A DNA stretch of 64,000 nucleotides, from IMG/VR virus record IMGVR_UViG_3300003872_000001, positions 1 through 64,000 of that record; one strand, written 5' to 3'. Each line of letters begins with the position of its first letter. Within the stretch, counting starts at the first letter, position 1. This DNA comes from a virus. The notes beneath the pieces are model-generated. The model worked only from the letters and a program-made list of their open reading frames with translations. It did no database searches and had not been told where the DNA came from. The position numbers and the translations under genes are program-made. Positions 1 to 61,010 of this stretch are shown here, piece by piece.

Positions 1-97
1 CTAGTAGTATAGCTACTAGGTACTATAGGTAGGGAATCGACCTTAGCTGCTCTTAGAGTAGTCTAGAAGCCACCTCGTTCACGGGGTGGTAGTTCAC
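1..97 (+). mobile_element. Right end/omegaRNA portion of an IS200/IS605-family (TnpB) element, copy 1, cut by the window start
   Basis: Near-identical to 38229-38325 and 60914-61010; ends in the IS605-type subterminal hairpin GAAGCCACCTCGTTCACGGGGTGGT followed by AGTTCAC. Confidence 0.8.
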
Positions 98-7096: not shown

Positions 7097-9226
7097 ATGG
7101 CTAGAATAGATAAAATTTTTACACCAACTCCTGATACTGAGGGACTAGATATCCGTGAAGAGTTATATGGTATACACGCACTAAATCCATTCGCACAATA
7201 TAATAGCTCAGCTCGTCTAGCTATGATGACAAGTCACATTTCACAAATGCTACCGCTAGAAAATGGTGAAGAACCTATTATCCAAACTGGTCTAGAAAAA
7301 CAACTAGGTGAGAACACTTGGTCAGTTAAGATACCTAATGATGCGCGTATAGTGCAAATCATAAGTCGCTACGGTGGTATAGGTGTTAATACAGTTAATT
7401 CCATAACTGAAATTCTAATAGTATATGAAGATTTAGAAACATTAGAATTAGATTTCATCTCAGTTCCACATAGATTCGATCTGCATCCTAACTATGGATT
7501 TAAATATAGATGGAATACTGATATATTAAATAATCTCAGACCGGGATCTATTATAAATAAAAATACTATATTAGCTGATTCTCCTAATGTCAAAGAAGGC
7601 GGAGGATATGGATATGGAATAAATGCTAATGTAGCATTACTCACCATCCCAGAAGTAGCTGAAGATGGTATGGTAATTTCTGAAACTATGTCTAAGAAAC
7701 TTAAACATACAACATTCGAAAAAATAGTTGTAGAATATGGAGTTAATAGTATCCTTCTTAATCTTTATGGTGATGAAACTAATTATAGACCATTTCCAGA
7801 AATAGGAGAATCTATTAAAGATCATTCTATAGTTATAGGTCTACGACGTATAGACCCTAAATTAGCACCAGCTCTATTATCCGTTAAAGATACTATGGAC
7901 TATGATCCTATGTTTGACCGTTGCTATTATGCTAAATATCCGAACGGAATAGTTAGTGATATTAAAGTTTATCACTCTCCTAAATTCAAGAAGAATCTAT
8001 TAGATGGTACTTCTGAAATACCACTTAAATATGCAAATGCACTTACTAATTATTATAAGAAAATAATAGAGGTATATGAGGACGCACAAAAAGAATATTA
8101 TCGTAGATATAAAAGCTGGGATATGAAAACATCTGAAAAGCTTTCTAGATTATTAGTAGAAGCTTACGCATTAACTAATGTTAATAATGATAATATAAAA
8201 AGAACTTTTAAGAAAGATGAATTAGATATCATCAGAGTTGAAATTACTGTAATGCATGAAAAGAAAGTAGTAATCGGAAATAAAATTAGCGATTTATTCG
8301 GAGGAAAAGGAATAGTCACAGCTATATTCCCAGATAATAAAATGCCTAAAGATCCTCATGGCAATCCAGCTGATGTTATTGCTGATCCAACTTCTATATT
8401 TTCTAGAATGAATATCGGTAAATTATATTGGATGTATTTCGGAGGAGTTAGTAGGAAGGTTAAGAATGTAGTAATAGATAAAATATATGAGCTAGAACCA
8501 AATGTTGCACCAGATGTAGCTATCGAATCTATAGCTGAAGAGGAAGTAAATTCTCTTTATAATTATGTATTAGGTTGTATAGGGATTATAGGTACTGAAC
8601 AATTTGATTATTATAGAAATATAACAGATATAAATATACGGATAATGATTCTTAAAGAGATTATAAATAAAGAATTCTATATTAAGTTTTCCGTATCTTC
8701 TAAAAAACTTGCATACCAAGTTGTAGGTGAATTAAGGGATAGTATCTATGCACCTACATTAGTTCCAGTATCGTTTGAATATAATGGTGAAATACGAAAA
8801 ACAAAGCCTATACTCATAGCACCACTATACATTATCTTACTTAATAAAACAGCTGACAACTTCCTATCTACTGCCAGCGCTAAGCTTAATCACTTTAATG
8901 TACCATGTAGCATTTCTAAAGCAGATAAAGCAGTAACTCCTTGGAGGGACAGCCCTACTAAAACCTGGTCTGAAACAGAGCTCAGACTTATGGCAGCTTA
9001 TGGATCGAGAAAAGCAGCGGCAGAGTTCATGAATAGGGCTAGTGATATAAACGCTCATAGGTACCTCTATAGTCATCTGCTGAACGCTGATAAGCCAACG
9101 AACATAGCGAATATTATAAACAGAGATATAGTTCCATATGGTGGAGAAGCTGCACTAAAGCTAATAAACACTATCTTTAACTGTAGTGGAATAACTACTG
9201 AATATGTGGAGGAAGAATTAGACTAA
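7097..9226 (+). CDS. rpoB: Non-virion RNA polymerase beta subunit, C-terminal part (phiKZ gp71-73-like), uninterrupted
   Basis: NSSARLAMMTSHISQ, GINANVA..EDGMVISE, GNKISDLFGGKGIV, DPTSIFSRMNIG RpoB motifs. Confidence 0.92.
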   Translation: MARIDKIFTPTPDTEGLDIREELYGIHALNPFAQYNSSARLAMMTSHISQMLPLENGEEPIIQTGLEKQLGENTWSVKIPNDARIVQIISRYGGIGVNTVNSITEILIVYEDLETLELDFISVPHRFDLHPNYGFKYRWNTDILNNLRPGSIINKNTILADSPNVKEGGGYGYGINANVALLTIPEVAEDGMVISETMSKKLKHTTFEKIVVEYGVNSILLNLYGDETNYRPFPEIGESIKDHSIVIGLRRIDPKLAPALLSVKDTMDYDPMFDRCYYAKYPNGIVSDIKVYHSPKFKKNLLDGTSEIPLKYANALTNYYKKIIEVYEDAQKEYYRRYKSWDMKTSEKLSRLLVEAYALTNVNNDNIKRTFKKDELDIIRVEITVMHEKKVVIGNKISDLFGGKGIVTAIFPDNKMPKDPHGNPADVIADPTSIFSRMNIGKLYWMYFGGVSRKVKNVVIDKIYELEPNVAPDVAIESIAEEEVNSLYNYVLGCIGIIGTEQFDYYRNITDINIRIMILKEIINKEFYIKFSVSSKKLAYQVVGELRDSIYAPTLVPVSFEYNGEIRKTKPILIAPLYIILLNKTADNFLSTASAKLNHFNVPCSISKADKAVTPWRDSPTKTWSETELRLMAAYGSRKAAAEFMNRASDINAHRYLYSHLLNADKPTNIANIINRDIVPYGGEAALKLINTIFNCSGITTEYVEEELD

Positions 9227-9260: not shown

Positions 9261-9317
9261 TTGGTTGTTTAATCATAATTAAATATATATTGGTTGTTTA
9301 ATCATAATTAAATATAT
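9261..9317 (+). repeat. Tandem direct repeat, 29-bp period x2
   Basis: TTGGTTGTTTAATCATAATTAAATATAT at 9261 and 9290. Confidence 0.9.
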
Positions 9318-9330
9318 GGAAGGAAATGTA

Positions 9331-10761
9331 ATGAACGATGTTAAAAATATGACAATAGGAGAATCTGTAGGTAAAACTATAGGTAATTTTGATATATTGG
9401 AATCAGTTGGCGGTGGTAAAGTAAGAGCTAAATGTAATTTGTGTGGTAATGAAAATTATACAACTCGTTTCTATAGTATAAAGTCAGGTCATGCTAAAAG
9501 CTGTGGGTGTGTTAAACCAGCTAAATTAAATGTGAATGATCATATAGGTAAGAAATATAATAAACTAACTATACTAGGACCATCTACAGAACGAGATAAG
9601 GACAACAGACCGCTAGTAACAGCTAAATGCGATTGTGGTAATATTAAGAATTTGCGACTATCTGAAATCACTAATGAAAAAGTAAAATCATGTGGTTGTG
9701 GTCATAACAGTACTAATAGTTTAGGCCCTAAAGATGTAATAGGAACTACTATAGGAAATTTTGACATACTAGAAGCAGTTGGTGGCGGTAGAGTAAAAGT
9801 TAAGTGTAATCTATGTGGTAACAAAGAATATGTTACATCACTCTATAAGATACGTTCTGGACATACTAAAAGTTGCGGATGTAAAAAACGTATAGTTAGT
9901 GGTAAACCTTATATCGGTAATACATACAACTGGCTAACTATAATAGATGCCAAAGATGAAAGAGATGAAAATCGCAATCTTCTAGTTACAGCTAAATGTA
10001 AATGCGGTAATGTACGTGATATACCATTGAGTTGGATATTAAGAGGTAAGACTAAATCATGTGGATGTATGGCCAGAAGTAAAGACGGCTATGCGGGAGG
10101 TATACATAAGAGTACATATGATGTATGGCGACAAATGTTAAAAAGATGTATGCAGTCTGGTAAACATGTAACTGATGATCCTAGAATATCATTTGTGAAT
10201 AAAGATGTACCACATGTTCGTTATAATGATTATGGTGCTAGGGGTATAACTGTAGATCCTAAATGGTATGATGTTAAGAAATTTGTAGATTGGTATGAAG
10301 CTAATATTAAAGACGGTGAAACAATGGATAGAATAGATAACGATAAAGGTTACTATTCTGATAATTTAAGATCAGCTACATCTAGTATGCAAAATATGAA
10401 TCAACGTGTTAGGAAAGATAACACATTAGGTTACAAGGGTATAACATATACAGATAGTTCTTATAGATGGGCTATAAAGTTAAATAATAAAACTTACCAA
10501 AGAGAAGGATTTACAACACCTGAGTTAGCATTAGTAGCTAGGAACTTATATATAGTTGAAAACAAGTTACCACATGATATACAAAGTTGTTCATCTTGTA
10601 AAACTATATTGGAATATGATAATAGAATCAATCAGTATGTTTTAGCGGTGATAAAAGATGGTCTTAAACATATAACTATATTTAAGAAAGAAGAGCTTGA
10701 TAATTACAAAAAAGTTCTTGATGGTATGAATAAAATGGAGATTGGTTCTGAGAAAGAATAA
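9331..10761 (+). CDS. Free-standing HNH-type homing endonuclease with four Cys-rich N-terminal repeats and an AP2-like domain
   Basis: 4x KC..CGN...KSCGC; YDVWRQMLKRC..YGARGITV..MDRIDNDKGY..DNLR; NTLGYKGI AP2-like tail. Confidence 0.85.
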   Translation: MNDVKNMTIGESVGKTIGNFDILESVGGGKVRAKCNLCGNENYTTRFYSIKSGHAKSCGCVKPAKLNVNDHIGKKYNKLTILGPSTERDKDNRPLVTAKCDCGNIKNLRLSEITNEKVKSCGCGHNSTNSLGPKDVIGTTIGNFDILEAVGGGRVKVKCNLCGNKEYVTSLYKIRSGHTKSCGCKKRIVSGKPYIGNTYNWLTIIDAKDERDENRNLLVTAKCKCGNVRDIPLSWILRGKTKSCGCMARSKDGYAGGIHKSTYDVWRQMLKRCMQSGKHVTDDPRISFVNKDVPHVRYNDYGARGITVDPKWYDVKKFVDWYEANIKDGETMDRIDNDKGYYSDNLRSATSSMQNMNQRVRKDNTLGYKGITYTDSSYRWAIKLNNKTYQREGFTTPELALVARNLYIVENKLPHDIQSCSSCKTILEYDNRINQYVLAVIKDGLKHITIFKKEELDNYKKVLDGMNKMEIGSEKE

Positions 10762-32483: not shown

Positions 32484-33008
32484 CTAAACCCTTTTCATCC
32501 ATCCACTAAAGAATTTTTCTTGTTTAGGATTTCTTTTTACGATATTATAATATCGCATAAACTGTAATCCACTAATTACTTTTAGTAAAGATGGTTTATC
32601 ATAACTTTCCAATGAATGTAAAGCTTTTAAGGTAGTGGGACCCGCAAAGCTATCTACTGTCATATCAGGAAATAATTTCTGATTTCTATTCATTAGGTTT
32701 AAAGCTTCTTGTAAAAACTCTGCAGCAGACCCTACACCTTGGTTAACAGCTGAATCAAACAATTCTATAGCTAATTTATTACTAAACTCACCAATTGTAG
32801 TTAAGTTCATATGTTTAGTATTCCAATAATTATCATAATATATTTTCTTAGCGTCAGCTAATGTTAAATTTTTAATATCTAAATTTGGATAATCCGCTTT
32901 AGCTATTCCATATTTTGTTTCGCCGCCTGGGTCAGTTGGGTCATTTACATAACCACCTTCAAATCCTATTATTACCCCAAATGCTTGGTTGTATAATTCT
33001 GAATCCAT
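32484..33008 (-). CDS. Endolysin, glycosyl hydrolase family 108 with peptidoglycan-binding domain
   Basis: EGGYVNDPTDPGGETKYGI; FDSAVNQG; F.GW.R C-terminus. Confidence 0.93.
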   Translation of the reverse strand: MDSELYNQAFGVIIGFEGGYVNDPTDPGGETKYGIAKADYPNLDIKNLTLADAKKIYYDNYWNTKHMNLTTIGEFSNKLAIELFDSAVNQGVGSAAEFLQEALNLMNRNQKLFPDMTVDSFAGPTTLKALHSLESYDKPSLLKVISGLQFMRYYNIVKRNPKQEKFFSGWMKRV

Positions 33009-33111
33009 GTGTGTTCCTTTATTATTTGTCCGACTTAGAATAACTAAGCGGATAGATTGTGTAAGCAGGTTTCACTGCTCAATGAACTATTGAAACTTTG
33101 TATTTCCTTCT

Positions 33112-35061
33112 TTAAAATCTAAATGATTCACTATCTGCGCCAGTGTCATTTTCTTCAAATGCAATATGTTTATCGTCATTTATGTTTTCTTTAATAGGTG
33201 CATTCTTAGGGAATGGTAAGCTGAATACCATCTTCTCATCTGGTAGTATTCCTGGCTGTCTATCTTTGCCTCTACCCACAATTAATTTCCATTTTCGTTT
33301 AACACTAACTTTAGTTAGATATAATTCGAGATCTACTACTTGGTCTAGTTGTCTGGAACCTTGGAAGTAACCTTTATTTGCAACTTCATTAATAAACTCT
33401 TTTCCTTTAATGCCACCTCGTAACAAACCTTTAGCTTCAGTACTAAATTGATGATTAGTAATGGTAAGTATTTTGTGCCTTTTTATTCTATATGTATCGT
33501 TACTACATATACGATTAGTTGGTTTATAACATTATCTTCATAATGTAACTAATCAGCTAGTACTCTCATACTAGAGTAGACTATATCATGATCTGTTATT
33601 CAATTAGATAACAGACCCTCTACATTTCGTCTTTAAGGGGACCATACCCCACCACTTGGCGCTACTCCCGTCAGGGATAGTCGTTGAACTCACACACTCC
33701 TACTAGAGGATAGTTCTCACTATTTAAGGTGCTTCGCTGCGTCGATTACCTACATATCCTACAAGGTTTTTACGATGCCTATTGACTATATTACGTCATA
33801 GGTATTACAGTCTATTTCTAGCTGTAAGTCGTACTTGTTGGCTTTAAGGGTTCCCCGCAATTAGAAGAGTTTGCATATAATGTCACCACTATATGGGCCT
33901 AGATAAATAAGCCGAGCTAAAATTCCTAACTCTATTAAATAAGTCTAGTACATCATTACCAGTTGGACCTGAAGTAACACATCCGGTTGTTGGTAACTTA
34001 TATAAGTAATCTATTAACATAGCATGGATTTCATATCCATTTGCTTCTAATTCTAATACTTTATTAAATAAAGATTTATAAGTCCACTCACTTGGGTTAA
34101 CTCTCATCATTTTAACATGATAACCATTTACACTTAATCTCTTTCTAATGTAAGATGCTACTTCAGCACCAGTAACTTTAGTTAGATCTGGTAATTCATT
34201 ATTTTCGTTATAATATAAATATCTATACATAAATTCTGTAAATACTTCACTATCATCTTCAAAACTTATATATAATATAAGTGGCTTCTTAGTCGGATCA
34301 TCTAAGGCTGGTTTATTATGCATAGCGAATTGCATAAACAAACTCTGCATAAACCCAGATTTATAATTATGTTGTAATGCTGCTATCATACACATAATGC
34401 CACGTCTGAATCCATTTTGTGTCATTTCATTAAGTTCTTTCCATCCACTTAATAGCTTACCTCCTTCAACTTTTTGGTTTTTAACTTTATTTAATACTGC
34501 ACCTAATCCATTTTCATCACCAATATCTAATTCGTCCATGATACCAGGATCCTTAGTTCTCGCTTTAAGAGATAATGCTTCTAGTGCAGTTATTAATTTT
34601 TGTGTATAAGCTGTAATGGTATCACCGTCTAATTTACCCGTTCTCATTTGATATGATGCCTTACTTATAGTAGCTTTCAGTTTCTCCTCTTTATAATAAT
34701 TATTAATAAGATTTCTAATACTAACTACTGTTCTCTTAAGGCTAGCTTGTGAAAATTCATTATCAATAGCATTTGTTACAATTTTACATAGATCTGGTTT
34801 ATTCTTAAATATTAAATTAATACTTTGTAATAAAGAAACTTTATCATAATTATCAGGATTATTTAATAGATCTAATATTAGATGTTTTAAGTCATCTTCT
34901 ACACTACCGTCACCACCTATGAACTGATTATCCCTATTGTCACTGGTAAAGACAGATAAGACTGTTCTTACTAGGTCTTTACTATCGCTAGTATCATTCT
35001 CTATTTCTTTCTCTCTATATAAAAGAGTTAACATCTTTATTAATATCTCTAGTTTAGACAT
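33112..35061 (-). CDS. dnaB: DnaB-like replicative helicase (phiKZ gp118-like), spliced: exons 35061-33910 and 33477-33112, ~505 aa
   Basis: GFRRG..ALQHNYKSG, ISFED, IDY in exon 1; splicing gives RNFSSA|HKILTITNHQFSTEAK and restores QVVDLEL..RGKDR. Confidence 0.88.
33478..33909 (-). ncRNA. Group I intron (432 nt, no ORF) in dnaB
   Basis: P AATTGCGGGG, Q AATCGACGCAGC, R GTTCAACGACTA, S ATGATATAGTC; P1 GGCT|TA..TAGGCC with U-G pair; terminal G; in-frame joining. Confidence 0.9.
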
Positions 35062-35205
35062 TTTAATTCCTTGTACTTTTACTATTTTTACTAATAAAAT
35101 AAACTATTCATACTTTTTTGTTAAACTAATTATATGTGAATATTTAAAATTAGGTAGTTATAGCGATTTATTTGAATAAAAGAATAAAACATAATAGGAG
35201 TTAAT

Positions 35206-35847
35206 ATGACGCCACTATCATCACCACTTTCAGGGACACTTTATGGTCCTGGTAAAACAGGCCGGCAATTGATATATGAAACACCAAGTGTTGTTTATAT
35301 ACCAGATTTTTTATCATCTGCATTAAATATTAATACCTTAATAGATATAGCAGGTATTGGATTTCAAATGGATAAACGTTTTTATACGTATGATAATGTG
35401 GCTAGAGAAGCTATAATAAAGATATTTAATGCTAAACTTTCTAAATATGATATTAGTAGCTTTATAAGTATAAATCAATATCTATACGAATTCATAAATA
35501 ATAGTAGACCGCACCTTATGAATAATTTAGTTGATTTTTTAACTAACGGAGAGCTTAATGACTTCCGTACTATACCTGGTAGTAATGATAAAGAATACTT
35601 AGATGTATTAAATATTCTAAAAAGTTCGAATACTATGAGTGAAAATAAAAATGACATTTATAACTTTATTCATGCAGATGGTATAATATTTGTTATTCTT
35701 CACGAAGGTTTTAGTAATTTAGTAATAGACAGTAACGATGGTCTTCAATCATTTCGGGAAGACCTACTTAATAGTATGTATAGTAATTTTAATGATGAAC
35801 AAGTTAGTTCAACTAGATTGTTCAAAACGTTCTTAAAAAATAAATAA
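35206..35847 (+). CDS. Conserved protein upstream of MCP (phiKZ gp119-like position)
   Basis: Synteny between DnaB and MCP; AGGAG RBS. Confidence 0.5.
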   Translation: MTPLSSPLSGTLYGPGKTGRQLIYETPSVVYIPDFLSSALNINTLIDIAGIGFQMDKRFYTYDNVAREAIIKIFNAKLSKYDISSFISINQYLYEFINNSRPHLMNNLVDFLTNGELNDFRTIPGSNDKEYLDVLNILKSSNTMSENKNDIYNFIHADGIIFVILHEGFSNLVIDSNDGLQSFREDLLNSMYSNFNDEQVSSTRLFKTFLKNK

Positions 35848-35865
35848 AAAGTGAGGAATCAGAAT

Positions 35866-38049
35866 ATGGCTGGTAAAAAGAAAATAGTCAAGGATTTGTT
35901 AGATACTCTAACATTAAATATTGGTGACGAAGGTCTAAATAAAAGAAAAGAGTTAACAAACTTTGTAATCTCTAATGAAGATATGGATTCAGCATCACGT
36001 GAGTCAGCTACAGTTGTGCTTGATAAACTACAAGATACTGTTAGCAGAACTTTAAGCGCTGTATTGTCACAAGAAGATATGGACGCATCTCAGTTTACAG
36101 AAGCACAATTTAATGCCGCAAACCAAATCGCTGCATTGGCATTAAATCCAAAAATTGCATTAGATGCATTTCGTAACCCAAAATCTGTTGATGTTAAAGG
36201 ACCACATAGTGTAATTGGCGCTGACGTTCTAGGTGTAGAAGATATACTACTAGGTGATCAATTGTCTTCTGAAGGTTATGATGGTGAAGCTACAAACAAT
36301 GCTATATATTTTTCAATTGTATCTAACTTCATGTCAGCAACACAAGATAAATTTGGTGAAGCATTTTTCCCAACTATTAGTATGGACCCAACTGTTTCAG
36401 GTGCAACTATTGAATGTGAATTTACTTCAATTTATAAAGAAATAGCTAGAAAAACTGATGGTTCATCTAGTATGAAAGATTTCGATAAAACTCCTATCGT
36501 AAAAGCAATCTTTGATAATAAACTATTCGGTAATGATAAAAATAGACTCATTCCAGTTGTAAGAAAGAATAACAGTTCAGTGCTTTTAGCTGACGTTTAC
36601 TCATTTGTAGAGTATAATGGCTCTGAAGATGTAACTACTGCTCCTTTAGCATTTGGTAAAACTATTGGTCTACTAGGTATTTCTCAAACTGACGCACAAC
36701 TTGCTAAAGGTGTTATGGATAATACTGATGCACTAGACAGAACTCTTAACTTAGAGAATATCTATTATTCACTAACTGGTACTGACTCAGCTGGAAAAAC
36801 TGTAACTGAAAACTTTATGGCTAATATATCTATATTACCACATAGTAACTTTACTTATAGCCCACAAGCACATGCAAAATCATTAGGATTAACTTTTTCT
36901 AGCGATGCTATTGCAATAGGAACTAGTACTAAAACTACTGTAACAGGTGCAGCTTCTGCTATATTATCACAACTCCCTGCTGGTCACACTATACAAATGC
37001 AAACAGTATTACATGGTGATGGCGATACTCAATCTGGTGATATTGCTGTTTATGCTTCTGAAATGAAAGTTGCTGCAATCTTGGATTCTGCAGGTAATGT
37101 ACTACCAACAACAAGTGCTGATTATGTAACTATTGAGAAAGTAATGTCAACTGTTAAACTTCTAGGTTATACTGTTGAAGCATATAGCACTAACTCTAAC
37201 CTTAGAAAACGTGGACAGCTTGTTACAACTGACCGTTATATTCAAATTTATAATGTTCCACTAAGAACAGGTGTTACTGTACTTGCTCCAGTTAACTCTA
37301 TGTCTGGTACTGATAATGATGCAGCTAGATTAACTAGTCAAATTACATATGCTGGTATAAGAACTTCTGTTGATGCAGTTAAAGCACTTGTTAACCATGC
37401 TGATATGTTGAATAACATAACTAATAATGGTGTTCCAGTTACAGCTGATCTAATGGGTGTTGGTAGATTCTATGTTGATACATATTACAATGAACTTAAC
37501 ATCGCAATTGATACTCATGTTGATTCTATTAAATCAAAAGATAGACTTGCTGACATTAGAGCTCTTTTAGTTAACAAAATTAAAAATGAAACAGTTAATA
37601 TGGCTATTAAAGCAAATTACTATATTGCTAATGTTGTCCTTAATGGAGCTAATAATGGTAAAATACAAGTTATCATAGGTACTGACCCGATTATAGGTTC
37701 ATACTTAACTGAAAATGGCGAAGGTGTTATTGACCTAGGACCTGACTATGAAGGCATTGTTGTTACTACACCTAATAAACTTATCCGTGGTTCAATCTTT
37801 GTATCATTTGGTATATTTGATGCAAATAGAAACACTAAAGCTAACCCATTGAACTTTGGTCAATGTTTCCGATCACCATCAATCACTACTGATGTTGTAA
37901 GAACATTAAGCGGATCTACTTCACGTGAATTAACATCTATGAATAGATATCTTCATGTTATTAACCTTCCACTTATGTTTAGACTAAACATTACTGGTAT
38001 CGCTACAGCACTAGAAAAAGTTGCAGTAGATTTTCGTACTGTAAAATAA
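35866..38049 (+). CDS. Major capsid protein (phiKZ gp120-like)
   Basis: ~727 aa; QDKFGEAFFPTI, TDALD, TNSNLRKRGQL, VIIGTDP, NPLNFG; S-x-E cleavage-like sites in the propeptide; start probably ATG 35866. Confidence 0.9.
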   Translation: MAGKKKIVKDLLDTLTLNIGDEGLNKRKELTNFVISNEDMDSASRESATVVLDKLQDTVSRTLSAVLSQEDMDASQFTEAQFNAANQIAALALNPKIALDAFRNPKSVDVKGPHSVIGADVLGVEDILLGDQLSSEGYDGEATNNAIYFSIVSNFMSATQDKFGEAFFPTISMDPTVSGATIECEFTSIYKEIARKTDGSSSMKDFDKTPIVKAIFDNKLFGNDKNRLIPVVRKNNSSVLLADVYSFVEYNGSEDVTTAPLAFGKTIGLLGISQTDAQLAKGVMDNTDALDRTLNLENIYYSLTGTDSAGKTVTENFMANISILPHSNFTYSPQAHAKSLGLTFSSDAIAIGTSTKTTVTGAASAILSQLPAGHTIQMQTVLHGDGDTQSGDIAVYASEMKVAAILDSAGNVLPTTSADYVTIEKVMSTVKLLGYTVEAYSTNSNLRKRGQLVTTDRYIQIYNVPLRTGVTVLAPVNSMSGTDNDAARLTSQITYAGIRTSVDAVKALVNHADMLNNITNNGVPVTADLMGVGRFYVDTYYNELNIAIDTHVDSIKSKDRLADIRALLVNKIKNETVNMAIKANYYIANVVLNGANNGKIQVIIGTDPIIGSYLTENGEGVIDLGPDYEGIVVTTPNKLIRGSIFVSFGIFDANRNTKANPLNFGQCFRSPSITTDVVRTLSGSTSRELTSMNRYLHVINLPLMFRLNITGIATALEKVAVDFRTVK

Positions 38050-38067
38050 TTATCTCTTCATAGTTAG

Positions 38068-38325
38068 TAAAACTCTGTCCTTCAGGACAGAGATACACTA
38101 ATGTAATATTAATATCTTAAGATATAGATAACTATAACAACATAAGGAGTACCTATGCTCATACAGATGATGCAGATATCAATGCTGCTAAGAACATCCA
38201 ACATATAGGTGCTACTAGAGTGTTACAACTAGTAGTATAGCTACCAGGTACTATAGGTAGGGGACCGACCTTAGCTGCTCTTAGAGTAGTCTAGAAGCCA
38301 CCTCGTTCACGGGGTGATAGTTCAC
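38068..38325 (+). mobile_element. Internally deleted IS200/IS605-family element with tnpB remnant and omegaRNA, copy 2
   Basis: Left-end hairpin CTCTGTCC-TTCA-GGACAGAG; RBS+ATG at 38155; remnant HTDDADINAAKNI (TnpB RuvC-III) from 38160; right end ..TAGTTCAC. Confidence 0.85.
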
Positions 38326-38382
38326 ACATTTAGTCAAGATTAATTTCTTGGCTGATTTAAAGCACTATACAACACGCACTAT

Positions 38383-38418
38383 TATAACACCAGTGGCTAA
38401 TATGCCACTGGTGTTATA
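38383..38418 (+). terminator. Hairpin terminator after MCP and the IS miniature
   Basis: TATAACACCAGTGGC-N6-GCCACTGGTGTTATA. Confidence 0.7.
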
Positions 38419-38519
38419 TGGTCTTTATATTCATTTTAAGGTACCTAGAAGACACGATCTATTCTAATGTGATGAATTATATGTATTTGACATTTAGACG
38501 TTATATGTGAGCTATTGAC

Positions 38520-38554
38520 TTTGATTCAATATCAAATATATAATATTAATATAG
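38520..38554 (+). promoter_or_regulatory. Putative early promoter
   Basis: TTTGAT-TCAAT-ATCAAA then TATATAATATTAATATAG. Confidence 0.65.
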
Positions 38555-38645
38555 AAGGAATGAGTAATATTAATAAAAGTGAATAACAGCTGAATTCATA
38601 TTTAATAATATTCATAACTTACTATTTAAATAAAAGAAGGCATAC

Positions 38646-40106
38646 ATGAATACATTACCGTACAATGTGAATAGTTTTGTAAGTCTAGAAAATGACCGTG
38701 AGGATAATGTATATGCGCACTATGTGCCGTATACAGAAAATGTTGGATCAGTTAGAAATAAAAATGATCTATATTTAAATTGTGATTATAAGTTAACTTT
38801 TATTAGCACTATAGGACCTGATATAAAAGTAATTCATAAGCGTAACATTGTGAGTGAGATAAGAGAAGATAGTAGTTTAAAATCTTTGATTGGATCTTAT
38901 GTTAAAGGTCTATCTGGTAAAGGGATTTATATAATTGAAACGTATACATTAAATGTCTTTAATAAAGATAAATTAGATAAAATTATTAATAATCTTGCTA
39001 ATGCCGATGGTGTAGCACTAACCTCTGATATTATTAAAGATATTTATGAGCAATATTCTAATAAGAAGCCTAAATATAGCCTAAGTATCCCGATCAATAT
39101 AAGATTTATATCCTTTGTACCAGAAGGACCACTTCGTGAATATGGATCTCTGTATGTAAGACAGTATGATATTGTTTTAACAAGTAATAGTTATGGTGCA
39201 CTACCAGAGCATCCGAACTCACAATTTAAAATAAATCTATCTCATAAGGATAGAGTTAATGGGATTCCATCAAATGTATTAACTTTAGATATTACAGATA
39301 ATGAATCTGTATTAAAAGAAACTAATGGTAGTAATAAGAAAGGTACAAATTACTTTATGAAGATTGGTAATGGTGTATATAGATTTGTATCTACTAGCGA
39401 TGGTGTAACTCCTAGTGGCGCAGTTATGGCTATTAAACATCAATATAGTGACCTACCAGAAGTAATCAATATAGATAAGGCTGATTTTGAAAAATATGGA
39501 TTATATAAGGATCGTGATTTAGCTATTTATAATGGAGATAAGAAAGGGCTACTAGAAGACAGGAAATTACAATTAGAATTAGATAAAATATCTAATGATA
39601 AAGCTAAATTACATAGAGAGATAAAAACATTAAAAGATGATAGAAAATCTTATAAAAAGGAACTCAAACTCAGGAATGATAAGTTGAACTTAGAACGAAA
39701 AAAGTTAGAGCATGAGCTTATTAAGATGGAGCATGAATTAGAGAAAATGAGGATGGATAGGCAAATGTTAAGAAAGAAAGCTGCTATGGAAATTATTTCT
39801 AATAGTTTTAAACTTCTTAGTCTGGAAATAGACATGAGTAGAGACCGACAAAAATTTCTATTAGAACAAAGTAGGTTGGATAATAAATTTAAATTGGATA
39901 ATTCATTGCTTAAAGCCAAATTTAAATTGGATAGTGATCTTACTAAATATAAGTTTAACAGGGAGGACAAGTTAGCAGAGGAGAAGTTTATCAGAGAAGA
40001 TAAAATAGCAAAGGATAAAAATCGTCGTGAAAATATTAAGAATACTTTTGACACTGTATCTAAGGCAGTTAATACTGGTATCAATATAGGAAAAGAATTT
40101 CTATAG
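38646..40106 (+). CDS. Conserved protein with long C-terminal coiled coil (phiKZ gp122-like position)
   Basis: Between MCP and gp123-like gene; EKYGLYK..A..NGD followed by K/E heptads. Confidence 0.55.
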   Translation: MNTLPYNVNSFVSLENDREDNVYAHYVPYTENVGSVRNKNDLYLNCDYKLTFISTIGPDIKVIHKRNIVSEIREDSSLKSLIGSYVKGLSGKGIYIIETYTLNVFNKDKLDKIINNLANADGVALTSDIIKDIYEQYSNKKPKYSLSIPINIRFISFVPEGPLREYGSLYVRQYDIVLTSNSYGALPEHPNSQFKINLSHKDRVNGIPSNVLTLDITDNESVLKETNGSNKKGTNYFMKIGNGVYRFVSTSDGVTPSGAVMAIKHQYSDLPEVINIDKADFEKYGLYKDRDLAIYNGDKKGLLEDRKLQLELDKISNDKAKLHREIKTLKDDRKSYKKELKLRNDKLNLERKKLEHELIKMEHELEKMRMDRQMLRKKAAMEIISNSFKLLSLEIDMSRDRQKFLLEQSRLDNKFKLDNSLLKAKFKLDSDLTKYKFNREDKLAEEKFIREDKIAKDKNRRENIKNTFDTVSKAVNTGINIGKEFL

Positions 40107-40124
40107 TAATAAAAAGGAAAACAT

Positions 40125-42311
40125 ATGAATGCAATTTTTGCGAAAATGATAGACGAAGTTGCACCGAAAGTTAATAAGAAGATAACTGATGGTGTTAATG
40201 CAGACATACTTAAACTATGTCCTACCTATATTAATAGCATAATTATGTCTGGTATGCGGTCTATAAATACAGATATACCATTAGTGTACCACGGGTGGCG
40301 CAGGTTGACACCTAAAGAAGAATTTGAAAAAATATATTCTGGTAAAAATAATAGAGTGAATTATGATATAGCTATAAGTTATTTATATGTTATCGAATTA
40401 AGATTTTCTTATAGAGGTGAACCAATTGTAAGACATATGTATCTTCCTTATGCCTCAGAAGGTAATATTATGAAAATATCTAGCACGCCATATAATATTG
40501 TATCTATTATGTCAGATACAGTAATATCACCAACGCATAAAAATATCTTTGTAAGATTGCATAGAGCTAAATTGATATTTGAAAAGACCGATAGAAATTT
40601 CTTATTAAATAATATTAAAACTCCAGGTCAAATTATCTATTCTGATATATACAAAACAAATAATAGGAATATTGAAGATAAGTTAGGTACTGTAGTGCCA
40701 CCCGTATGTCTTTATATATTAGGATTTTATGGACTAGTTAGATCTCTTGAAAAATATGCAAGTGTAAAAGGTGTGCAAGTATTAACAGGTGATGCTAACT
40801 ATTTAATGGAAACACATAGAGTATATGCGTCTACTAAATTAAAACCTAAAGATCTAAATGAAAGTTATTATACTGGTCATGATTTGAAAATAGCTATACC
40901 TAATGCTGCTATAGATAATAGTAATAGAGATTTTATAGATAATTTTGTATTTAGTATTATGTATACTATAGATATATTTCCAGATGATAGTGCCGATGAT
41001 TTAGTTTATGTAATCAATTCTAATGATCTAAAAAGTGAAAAGTTATTTTGGAGAGTTCTATTAGGTAAGATAGTATTTAAGAATAGTTTTTCTATAGATA
41101 AGATTATAGCTGATATTAATGATCATTTTACAACGCTTAATAGTTATATAGACGCATTACTTAAAACAAAGTTAGAAGAGTCGGGTGTGGTTATAGATAA
41201 CTTTTTTGATTTAATAGCTATCATTGTAAGTAATTATAATGGCTGGATAATCAACAGTAAACTTTATAATAGTGATCTCAATAATCGTTATATTGATGTT
41301 TTGTATTACTTAATGTACGATATAGTAATTTCTGTTAATAAAGCTTTATTCGATATTAATAGGAAATATAATAAGAATAAAAAAGATCTGTCATTTTTAG
41401 AGATAAATAAGATCTTATCAGACATTGGTCTCAGAAAAATTTTTTCGATTTTATCAGGTTCGATTTTGTCTAAATAAAATAAATAAAAAAATAGGTAGTG
41501 ATATACCTTATTTAGACAAGAGCCCTTCACAGTAGCGATATTGTGATTGCATCTATCTAATTGCGGGAAATCCTTAAAGCCAACAAGTACGACTTATACA
41601 TAGAAATATAGTATAATACCTATGGAGTAATGTTTCCAATAGGCATCGTAAAAACCTTGTAGGATATGTAGGTAATCGACGCAGCGAAGCACCTTAAACA
41701 GTGAGAACTATCTACTTGATGTAGAGTGTGTGAGTTCAACGACTATCCCTGACGGGAGTAGCGCCAAGTGGTGGGGTATGATCCCCTTAAAGACGAAATG
41801 GTAGACATCTCTAGTAGATGATGATATAGTCTATTCTAGTATGAGAGTACTAGCTGATTGGTTATACTTATGACATAAAGTATTATAAATAAACCAATCG
41901 TGGTTAGAGTAACGATCTAATCAGAATACCAAGGGACTTAACTTATGTCTTATGCCGGGTGGCGATTCTTCACCTGATATTAAATACCCAAAAATAACTA
42001 GCGTGTTATTAGATCAGAGTAATGGCGTGGGTGTTAAAAGAGCTAAAACATCTAGCTTACCAGAAAGTATGAGGTTTATTAGAGGTACAGATCTTTATGT
42101 TGGTTCTATTCTATTCCTACTTAAGAGTTCTAATAGTCCGCGTTATAAGAAAAATATTTATATGGATTATAATGAAAATACTGGTAGGGTTATAATGTCT
42201 AATGACATGGTACATATTACAACTAAATTAGATAAATTATTAACAAGTAAAATAGGGAGAGAAATTGTTAAAATCAATGTGCTCGGAGAAGAAGAAGAAG
42301 TGGATGACTGA
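40125..42311 (+). CDS. Non-virion RNA polymerase beta subunit, N-terminal part (phiKZ gp123-like), spliced: exons 40125-41459 and 41934-42311, ~570 aa
   Basis: YDIAIS..MYLPY..DTVISP..IFVRL.RAKL.F in exon 1; GD..KITS.L.DQ in exon 2; both exons in the same frame. Confidence 0.85.
41460..41933 (+). ncRNA. Group I intron (474 nt, no ORF) in the gp123-like RNAP gene
   Basis: Same P/Q/R/S core as the dnaB intron; P1 GGT|TC..GAGCC with U-G pair; TATTC/GAATA P9.0-like pairing places the terminal G at 41933 (alternative 41924). Confidence 0.88.
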
Positions 42312-42492
42312 AGTAAAATTAGTACGAAGTATTTTACATAATATTAGTACTGGTTGTGATAGAAGTGATCCTAGTTCGTATGAACGTATAGTTACAAGTC
42401 GTAAATTATTACAAATGAATAATAGCAAGCTTATAGATGAGTTATTAAAAATGGATAATCCAGAGGATTTCTTAAAATTGATTCTAGAGTAG
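42304..42492 (+). CDS. Small hypothetical protein
   Basis: ATG overlapping the stop of the preceding exon. Confidence 0.45.
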   Translation: MTEVKLVRSILHNISTGCDRSDPSSYERIVTSRKLLQMNNSKLIDELLKMDNPEDFLKLILE

Positions 42493-42497
42493 ATGAA

Positions 42498-42536
42498 TTG
42501 ATTCTAGAAAGAATCAAGTATATAATATTAAAATAG
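42498..42536 (+). promoter_or_regulatory. Putative early promoter
   Basis: TTGATTCT-AGAA-AGAATCAA then GTATATAATATTAAAATAG. Confidence 0.7.
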
Positions 42537-60869: not shown

Positions 60870-61010
60870 TAAAACTTCATCCTTCAGAGCTGGGTAACAC
60901 TAGAGTGTTACAACTAGTAATATAACTATCAAGTACTATAGGTAGGGAACCGACCTTAGCTGCTCTTAGAGTAGTCTAGAAGCCACCTCGTTCGCAAAGT
61001 GGTAGTTCAC
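60870..61010 (+). mobile_element. Minimal IS200/IS605 derivative (left end + omegaRNA/right end), copy 3
   Basis: Degenerate left end after TAGTTAG fused directly to the omegaRNA block shared with copies 1 and 2. Confidence 0.8.

Follow-up and report, generated by a model that had tools for sequence, protein, structure and literature searches.

In phage T4, several related group I introns of subgroup IA interrupt essential genes (the td, nrdB and sunY, or nrdD, introns), and Bryk and Belfort reportedly described, in 1990, spontaneous domain shuffling between them. Staphylococcus phage Twort likewise carries several small group I introns that are devoid of an open reading frame (ORF), with more than one of them in a single gene, as in the case of orf142. 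Here we describe two ORF-less IA-type introns found in the first 64 kb (hereafter the window) of a 107,322-bp virus contig from IMG/VR (record IMGVR_UViG_3300003872_000001), one of them (i1) interrupting the gene of a DnaB-like replicative helicase and the other (i2) that of a gp123-like subunit of the non-virion RNA polymerase (RNAP). As in T4, these are related IA-type introns that occupy different essential genes, with probable recombination between homologous cores; in contrast, the T4 introns carry or carried endonuclease ORFs and their shuffling was seen in the laboratory, whereas exchange between i1 and i2 would have taken place in nature and is read from the sequences. The situation is also reminiscent of Twort in that one phage harbours several short, ORF-less group I introns that are of a single type. 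However, the host genes and the lineage are different, and the Twort ribozyme has been characterized biochemically and structurally, whereas i1 and i2 are known from sequence.

Among the multisubunit RNAP genes, the virion RNAP beta gene gp210 of the phiKZ-like phage PhiPA3 contains a group I intron with an HNH homing endonuclease (Birkholz et al. 2024, PMC11620839; PMC12908238), and PMC12908238 also cites a paper on the Twort nrdE intron. The direct analogue of the PhiPA3 element is not i1 or i2 but i3, a third intron of the contig located beyond the window, which likewise bears an HNH endonuclease and sits within a conserved motif encoded by one of the multisubunit RNAP genes; unlike the PhiPA3 intron, i1 and i2 have no endonuclease gene and i1 lies in dnaB rather than in an RNAP gene. 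The huge phages named Jug carry about 18.5 group I introns per genome, with a mean length of ~206 nucleotides (nt), and combine introns and HNH endonucleases in terL, nrdD and DNA polymerase genes, splicing having been shown from metatranscriptomes (PMC12880540). Like the phage studied here, they are huge phages known only from metagenomes, with essential genes rich in group I introns and HNH endonucleases; they belong, however, to another clade and have other intron types, and mosaicism among intron paralogs is not discussed in the passages of PMC12880540 that were consulted. Finally, the routes by which group I introns reach ectopic sites have been reviewed (PMC3984707, PMC2504315). The comparison case of related introns at heterologous sites shares with the present one a guide pairing of only 4-6 nt, but in the present case protein-coding genes of a virus are involved, and an endonuclease route is available and better supported.

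With a probability that we put at about 0.78, i1 and i2 are endonuclease-less members of a mobile IA-type family, which would have arrived by homing, lost their endonuclease genes and exchanged patches with other copies. The first of them, i1 (33478..33909, minus strand), is an IA-type group I intron of 432 nt, ORF-less and equipped with P7.1 and P7.2, that separates two exons of a divergent DnaB-like replicative helicase gene. Exon 1 (33910..35061, minus strand) has 384 codons and ends in ...AGC UCG GCU at a codon boundary, and exon 2 (33112..33477, minus strand) has 121 codons plus the stop. The former covers positions 6-238 of the Pfam divDNAB profile (PF20307) and 1-384 of the PHROG 3213 profile, and the latter continues with positions 241-348 and 386-491, respectively, being contiguous with exon 1 in both profiles. 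The spliced protein aligns without a gap at the junction with the DnaB proteins of AgentSmith and RP31. In addition, 63 metagenome DnaB loci were surveyed, of which about 48 span the site; all of these are intron-less and exactly colinear, with 0 extra nt. Profile colinearity and intron-less homologues thus agree in that excision of i1 restores the DnaB reading frame. A fragment from ENA (P0002) is 81% identical to DnaB exon 2. The Rfam model RF00028, whose gathering score is 50, matches positions 33557-33919 (minus strand) with 84.3 bits. The P1 helix (33896..33913, minus strand) consists of exon GGCU plus intron UA (33913-33908), a UUUAUC loop and the guide UAGGCC (33901-33896), the U at the 5' splice site (U33910) forming a U·G wobble with the guide. 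The final base of the intron is the G at 33478 and its longest internal ORF has 29 amino acids.

The second intron, i2 (41460..41933, plus strand), belongs to the same family of group I introns, is ORF-less and measures 474 nt. It follows a first exon (40125..41459, plus strand) of 445 codons that ends in ...UUA UCA GGU and precedes a second one (41934..42311, plus strand) of 125 codons plus the stop. Exon 1 matches positions 1-423 of the 535 of PHROG 2943, and a homologue of the gene, annotated as subunit of a non-virion RNAP, is present in Pseudomonas phage PA1C. The spliced product has 570 amino acids, versus 569 in AgentSmith; exon 2 is 44% identical to the corresponding exon of the related contig L021, and the gp123-like homologues of L021 and L017 are colinear over the i2 site. 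An intron at this same site in L021 and L017 was considered and rejected, as their sequence places it 28 codons downstream. RF00028 matches i2 at 41499-41853 (plus strand) with 75.5 bits; Rfam gathering scans applied to long inputs overlook family members that pass the threshold when the input is short, and it was only through its speed filters that the whole-window scan missed i2. In P1 (41457..41524, plus strand), GGU-UC (41457-41461, the hyphen marking here and below the splice site or exon junction) pairs with GAGCC (41520-41524), again with a U·G pair at the splice site, and an L1 extension within the helix forms a perfect 12-bp hairpin (41466-41477 with 41508-41519). The intron ends with the G at 41933, and its longest internal ORF has 39 amino acids. 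Minimum free energy folding recovered P1 and P2 in both introns. An initial annotation of the window had read the two intervals as group I introns, each with a P1 and guide of its own (GGCU-UA with UAGGCC, and GGU-UC with GAGCC), free of endonuclease genes and with junctions that restore the reading frames. All of this was borne out by the profile scores, the folds and the ORF lengths and, as to the junctions, by the profiles, the ~48 intron-less DnaB homologues and an intron-less allele of the gp123-like gene.

This allele, which comes from the same metagenome as the contig, was found in a minor contig of run X3 (one of two metagenome runs), where position 41452 is joined to 41933 with six other letters between them, at a depth of 11 versus ~48 for the main form. 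It reads AUU UUG AGC GGG-GGA CUU, against AUU UUA UCA GGU-GGA CUU in the spliced reference, and both encode ILSG-GL. Relative to window positions 41448-41459, five of the nine bases of the last three exon 1 codons are changed, all synonymously (including UCA to AGC), and the flanks of the recoded site stay at least 90% identical. Since all three codons carry synonymous changes, the intron-less form represents a separate allele at the DNA level rather than a transcript derived from this genome, and consequently the i2 site is polymorphic for intron presence and absence. The allele is without the GGU that pairs with the i2 guide, and looks like a possibly endonuclease-resistant homing site. Of two marks of a mobile intron, an encoded endonuclease and presence/absence variation, i1 and i2 display the second but not the first.

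The two introns align at 83-84% identity over ~380 nt, with identical runs of ~57-62 nt, in agreement with the long identical core stretches that had been pointed out earlier. The similarity is very uneven, however, amounting to 98% in P7/P7.1/P7.2, 97% from P7' to P9, 87% in P4-P5 and 83% in P6, against 65% in the 3' tail, 55% in P2 and 30% in P3 plus P8. The covarying stems that had likewise been claimed are real, as illustrated by UGAC/GUCA versus UGGA/UCCA and by UUACAG/CUGUAA versus UUAUAC/GUAUAA. When i1 is compared with i2 over the 80 pairs of the family consensus structure, 17 pairs show double compensatory changes, one has changed on one side only, and one, in P3, is broken into a U·U mismatch. 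Across ten family members, double changes affect 53 of the 80 pairs and 94.8% of the alignment cells are paired, versus 76% in shuffles and 35-49% for slid structures, none of 500 shuffles reaching the observed values. Structural selection on both copies is thereby supported as the probable cause of this pattern. P7.1 and P7.2 correspond to the covarying helices 9-11 between P7 and P3' (family alignment columns 361-428), and by them both introns belong to subgroup IA. The differences between i1 and i2 are clustered at sites that vary in the family (P 0.0015); the P5 extension and P7.1/P7.2 are identical in the two introns yet vary freely in other members, and a 30-mer specific to their P7.1-P7.2 block has no other occurrence in IMG/VR. 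In the family tree, i1 and i2 are nearest neighbours (support 89/98) and most other forks are weak, as expected for sequences that recombine.

Assembly chimerism was considered as a cause of the i1/i2 identity and rejected. Independent Logan contigs tie the unique parts of each intron to its own exons and, moreover, a mis-join over the inverted i1 and i2 copies would invert the segment between them.

Although described initially as twins, i1 and i2 are two of four family introns in the 107-kb contig, one of the other copies having an HNH endonuclease. A search of the whole contig for further copies, which had been advised, disclosed i3 and i4, both outside the window; they are located here in the numbering of the whole contig (G000) and in that of L009, which covers the part beyond the window. 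Intron i3 (G000 70140-72126; L009 6140-8126) lies in the RNAP beta' gene, inside the catalytic ADFDG-D motif, with a P1 made of GGU-AC and GUGCC, and its loop L1 encodes a 488-residue endonuclease ORF with HNH and NUMOD1 domains. Intron i4 (G000 75607-76140; L009 11607-12140) is ORF-less and interrupts the RNAP beta gene at AGA U-CA, its 5' splice site (U75606) being fixed by the reading phase, the GAU-C/GGUC pairing and profile colinearity (positions 1054 and 1062 of PHROG 3148 are colinear over the intron). The two are ~90% identical in the 3' domain, versus 40-77% elsewhere. Over the four introns, L1 forms a size series of 6 nt (i1), ~55 nt (i2), ~145 nt (i4) and 1.6 kb (i3). Beyond this contig, an IMG/VR search with a core 19-mer retrieved 11 loci in 7 contigs, often with several copies per contig. 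Family sites elsewhere include residue ~406 of another RNAP beta piece, the position 28 codons downstream of the i2 site and the beta' DFDG site, and GGU is the ending of several of them. Of the guide pairing, the exon portion amounts to only 3-4 nt (GCC versus GGCC), so that the guide cannot be what selects the site and little retargeting is needed.

Some additional features of the family were noted in RNAP genes. An RNAP beta piece is intact at 7097-9226 of the window (PHROG 3295) and is followed by a free-standing gene for a 481-residue HNH endonuclease (9316-10761); the homologous beta gene has a family intron at residue ~406, after GGU, in the related contigs L012, L013, L018 and L020, and PHROGs splits the two halves of the intron-bearing gene into families 18919 and 23982. 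Tandem family introns, two to four within 1-3 kb, occur in the related contigs L019 (4889-5635), L015 (1420-2400) and L011, with two of them after the beta' DFDG exon in L019; such arrangements would imply mini-exons or nested insertions. At G000 84484-84531 a 48-nt stretch weakly resembles the 3' tail typical of i3 and i4 (nhmmer 1.7 bits, E 0.02 within 1 kb), and no ribozyme core was detected at these positions.

The DnaB site is occupied in relatives as well. In contig L027, whose DnaB is 40% identical, a 490-nt group I intron (85 bits) with a core only distantly related to that of i1 and a weak NUMOD1-like ORF remnant lies at the i1 codon boundary. The same boundary in L024 (DnaB 59% identical) contains an insertion with an ORF whose first 133 residues are 31% identical to the i3 HNH endonuclease (E 6e-14). 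Contig L087, which keeps both DnaB exons at 89-91% amino-acid identity, carries an i1 orthologue at the same site. Judging from these three occupants, the site is in all probability a pre-existing and recurrent homing site. Furthermore, the orthologue in L087 means that the DnaB intron predates the split from that phage, and that its presence is not a recent or private event of the genome studied here.

The comparison with L087 also bears on the origin of the mosaic pattern. The intron is 94.4% identical between the two phages (98.3% in its last 180 nt), the dnaB exons 84.4% and their third codon positions 69%. Of the 29 differences between the introns, 13 fall in two hairpins, P5b and P6b, in which L087 matches i2 base for base (P ~1e-6, a statistic computed post hoc, after the patches had been seen), and the P5b of i1 is the version found in L020. 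These observations support gene conversion in short patches as the likely source of the shared blocks, and give substance to the homogenisation of the cores by gene conversion that the initial annotation had suggested.

In the model that we favour, i1 and i2 would self-splice from the pre-mRNA by guanosine attack at the P1 U·G pair and subsequent exon ligation after the terminal G, restoring the DnaB helicase and the gp123-like non-virion RNAP subunit. Homing at the DNA level would be the likeliest route by which the two sites were colonised, the drivers being HNH endonucleases in loop L1 of family members (for example, that of i3 or of the insertion at the DnaB site of L024). Later loss of the endonuclease genes would have left the short L1 remnants of i1, i2 and i4, and copies residing in one genome would swap short patches by recombination or gene conversion, which would result in near-identical core blocks beside unrelated P2, P3 and P8 helices. 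Endonuclease-driven arrival, endonuclease-gene loss and the direction of the conversions are thus steps that we infer. Several points count against the model. The contig is estimated to represent ~40% of the genome, and splicing of i1 and i2 is a prediction from sequence. No endonuclease gene was found adjoining i1 or i2, and the L1 remnants of i2 and i4 show a similarity no better than chance to the i3 endonuclease region and to the endonuclease ORFs of relatives, for which reason the evidence for gene loss comes from the size series and the relatives only. In addition, L024 stops inside its ORF, which leaves the ribozyme, and hence the intron nature of the insertion, unseen, and uneven substitution rates could have generated part of the mosaic. 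Moreover, a co-conversion tract, as in the classic homing footprint, is missing downstream of i1: identity with L087 drops from 98% at the 3' end of the intron to 78% in the first 60 nt of exon 2. On the 5' side, identity rises slightly over the final 60 nt of exon 1 (91.7% versus 84.5%).

It is this missing tract, with the drop placed exactly at the intron-exon boundary, that keeps some standing for reverse splicing, in which an i2-type ribozyme would have inserted into the dnaB mRNA at a short guide match, been reverse-transcribed and recombined back into the genome, with later adjustment of its guide. Reverse splicing is named in reviews as a proposed route to ectopic sites (PMC3984707). 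It would suit two introns that both lack an endonuclease gene and have no nearer relative in the family tree than one another, as well as two target sites that have no extended similarity and an exon recognition that requires just GGU or GGCU. However, a reverse transcriptase (RVT_1) domain was not found in the 107-kb contig, about 40% of the genome, and the DnaB site is a recurrent target of homing, with an i3-family HNH endonuclease in L024 and another group I intron in L027. Because no such domain was found in the contig, the DnaB intron is older than the split from L087, and i1 did not take its P2, P3, P8 and 3' tail from i2 (30-65% identity), the support for reverse splicing inside this genome is slight and we regard such an event as unlikely. 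Accordingly, the earlier proposal that one ribozyme spread to unrelated sites holds as far as a single family with a P1 fitted to each exon is concerned, and is not supported in its appeal to reverse splicing with a guide swap within the genome. A similarly low likelihood is given to a broader version, in which the source of the DnaB intron, or of its ribozyme body, was a gp123-type paralog, the transfer taking place at the RNA level by reverse splicing where 4 nt matched the guide, and spread between phage lineages followed without exon co-conversion. If true, no natural example of a group I intron moving into a protein-coding gene by reverse splicing would be clearer, and intron paralogs would also be shown to evolve in concert in a virus.

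Another explanation dispenses with exchange altogether, i1 and i2 being old paralogs whose identical blocks reflect only strong purifying selection on the core and whose divergent helices reflect fast compensatory evolution. The most conserved blocks do include universal core elements (J6/7-P7 and P7'), and the differences between the two introns are overwhelmingly compensatory. Nevertheless, the P5 extension and P7.1/P7.2, which other members vary freely, are identical in i1 and i2, and the differences cluster at family-variable sites. The same explanation leaves unaccounted for the two hairpins that differ between orthologues 94% identical, with L087 of the i2 type in both and i1 of the L020 type in at least P5b, and the ~90% identity of the i3 and i4 3' domains against 40-77% for the rest. 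We therefore consider it unlikely as an account of the mosaic. Lastly, that the insertions are dead relics, and dnaB and the gp123-like gene split or inactive, draws on splicing being predicted from sequence but is most improbable, given the one broken pair between i1 and i2, the open and conserved exon halves of both genes, the 89-91% identity of the L087 orthologue exons and the status of both genes as core genes of phiKZ-like phages.

These introns have practical and biological consequences. Gene callers will annotate DnaB and an RNAP subunit of this clade as truncated and, in the same contig, beta' as catalytically dead and beta as split. In a phiKZ-like phage, ribozyme folding would be a requirement for replication and for the work of both RNA polymerases, and short-patch exchange between paralogous ribozymes would be documented in nature. 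The contig and its relatives offer a natural data set on the persistence of group I introns after endonuclease loss, comprising four paralogs, a sister-phage orthologue, an allele recoded at the P1-pairing codons and one HNH family at different targets. New in this case are the lineage of the phage, the location in DnaB and the evidence from nature for exchange of patches; current views of phage introns are not overturned.

As to its origin, the contig (30% GC) comes, by its gene content, from what is most probably a distant, uncultured, AT-rich phiKZ-like jumbo phage, since it encodes a phiKZ-type major capsid protein (PF25620), a PF20307 DnaB and several split multisubunit RNAP genes. The capsid gene (35851-38049) lies upstream of the gp123-like gene. 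The closest GenBank phage is Bacillus phage AgentSmith, with a protein identity of only 28-40%. Megablast of window positions 33000-42500 against GenBank phages returned zero matches, and in a distant blastn search of the same phages only a 38-nt core stretch of i1 was matched, with no wider nucleotide similarity to any phage intron. The close-relative fragment L087 (also labelled L088; JALUBM010000036.1, 2221 bp, 30% GC, DnaB 89-91% identical) was binned in a metagenome-assembled genome of Sulfurimonas sp., in which this 2.2-kb piece is the sole phage contig and does not reach the i2 orthologue. Its binning gives a weak hint of a Campylobacterota host, a binning artefact being equally possible.

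The intergenic region that follows the capsid gene (window 38050-38530) shows 3-5 times the contig depth in the metagenome runs, with alternative joints linking 38053 to 38326 and 38325 to 38523, and encodes a short TnpB-like C-terminal remnant (...HTDDADINAAKNIQHIG...). The stretch at 38229-38325 is found again at window positions 1-97 and 60899-61010, and further copies of its hairpin lie at G000 82541-82635 and 97858-97893. The region may be a small repeated element or a relic of an insertion sequence end or omega-RNA.

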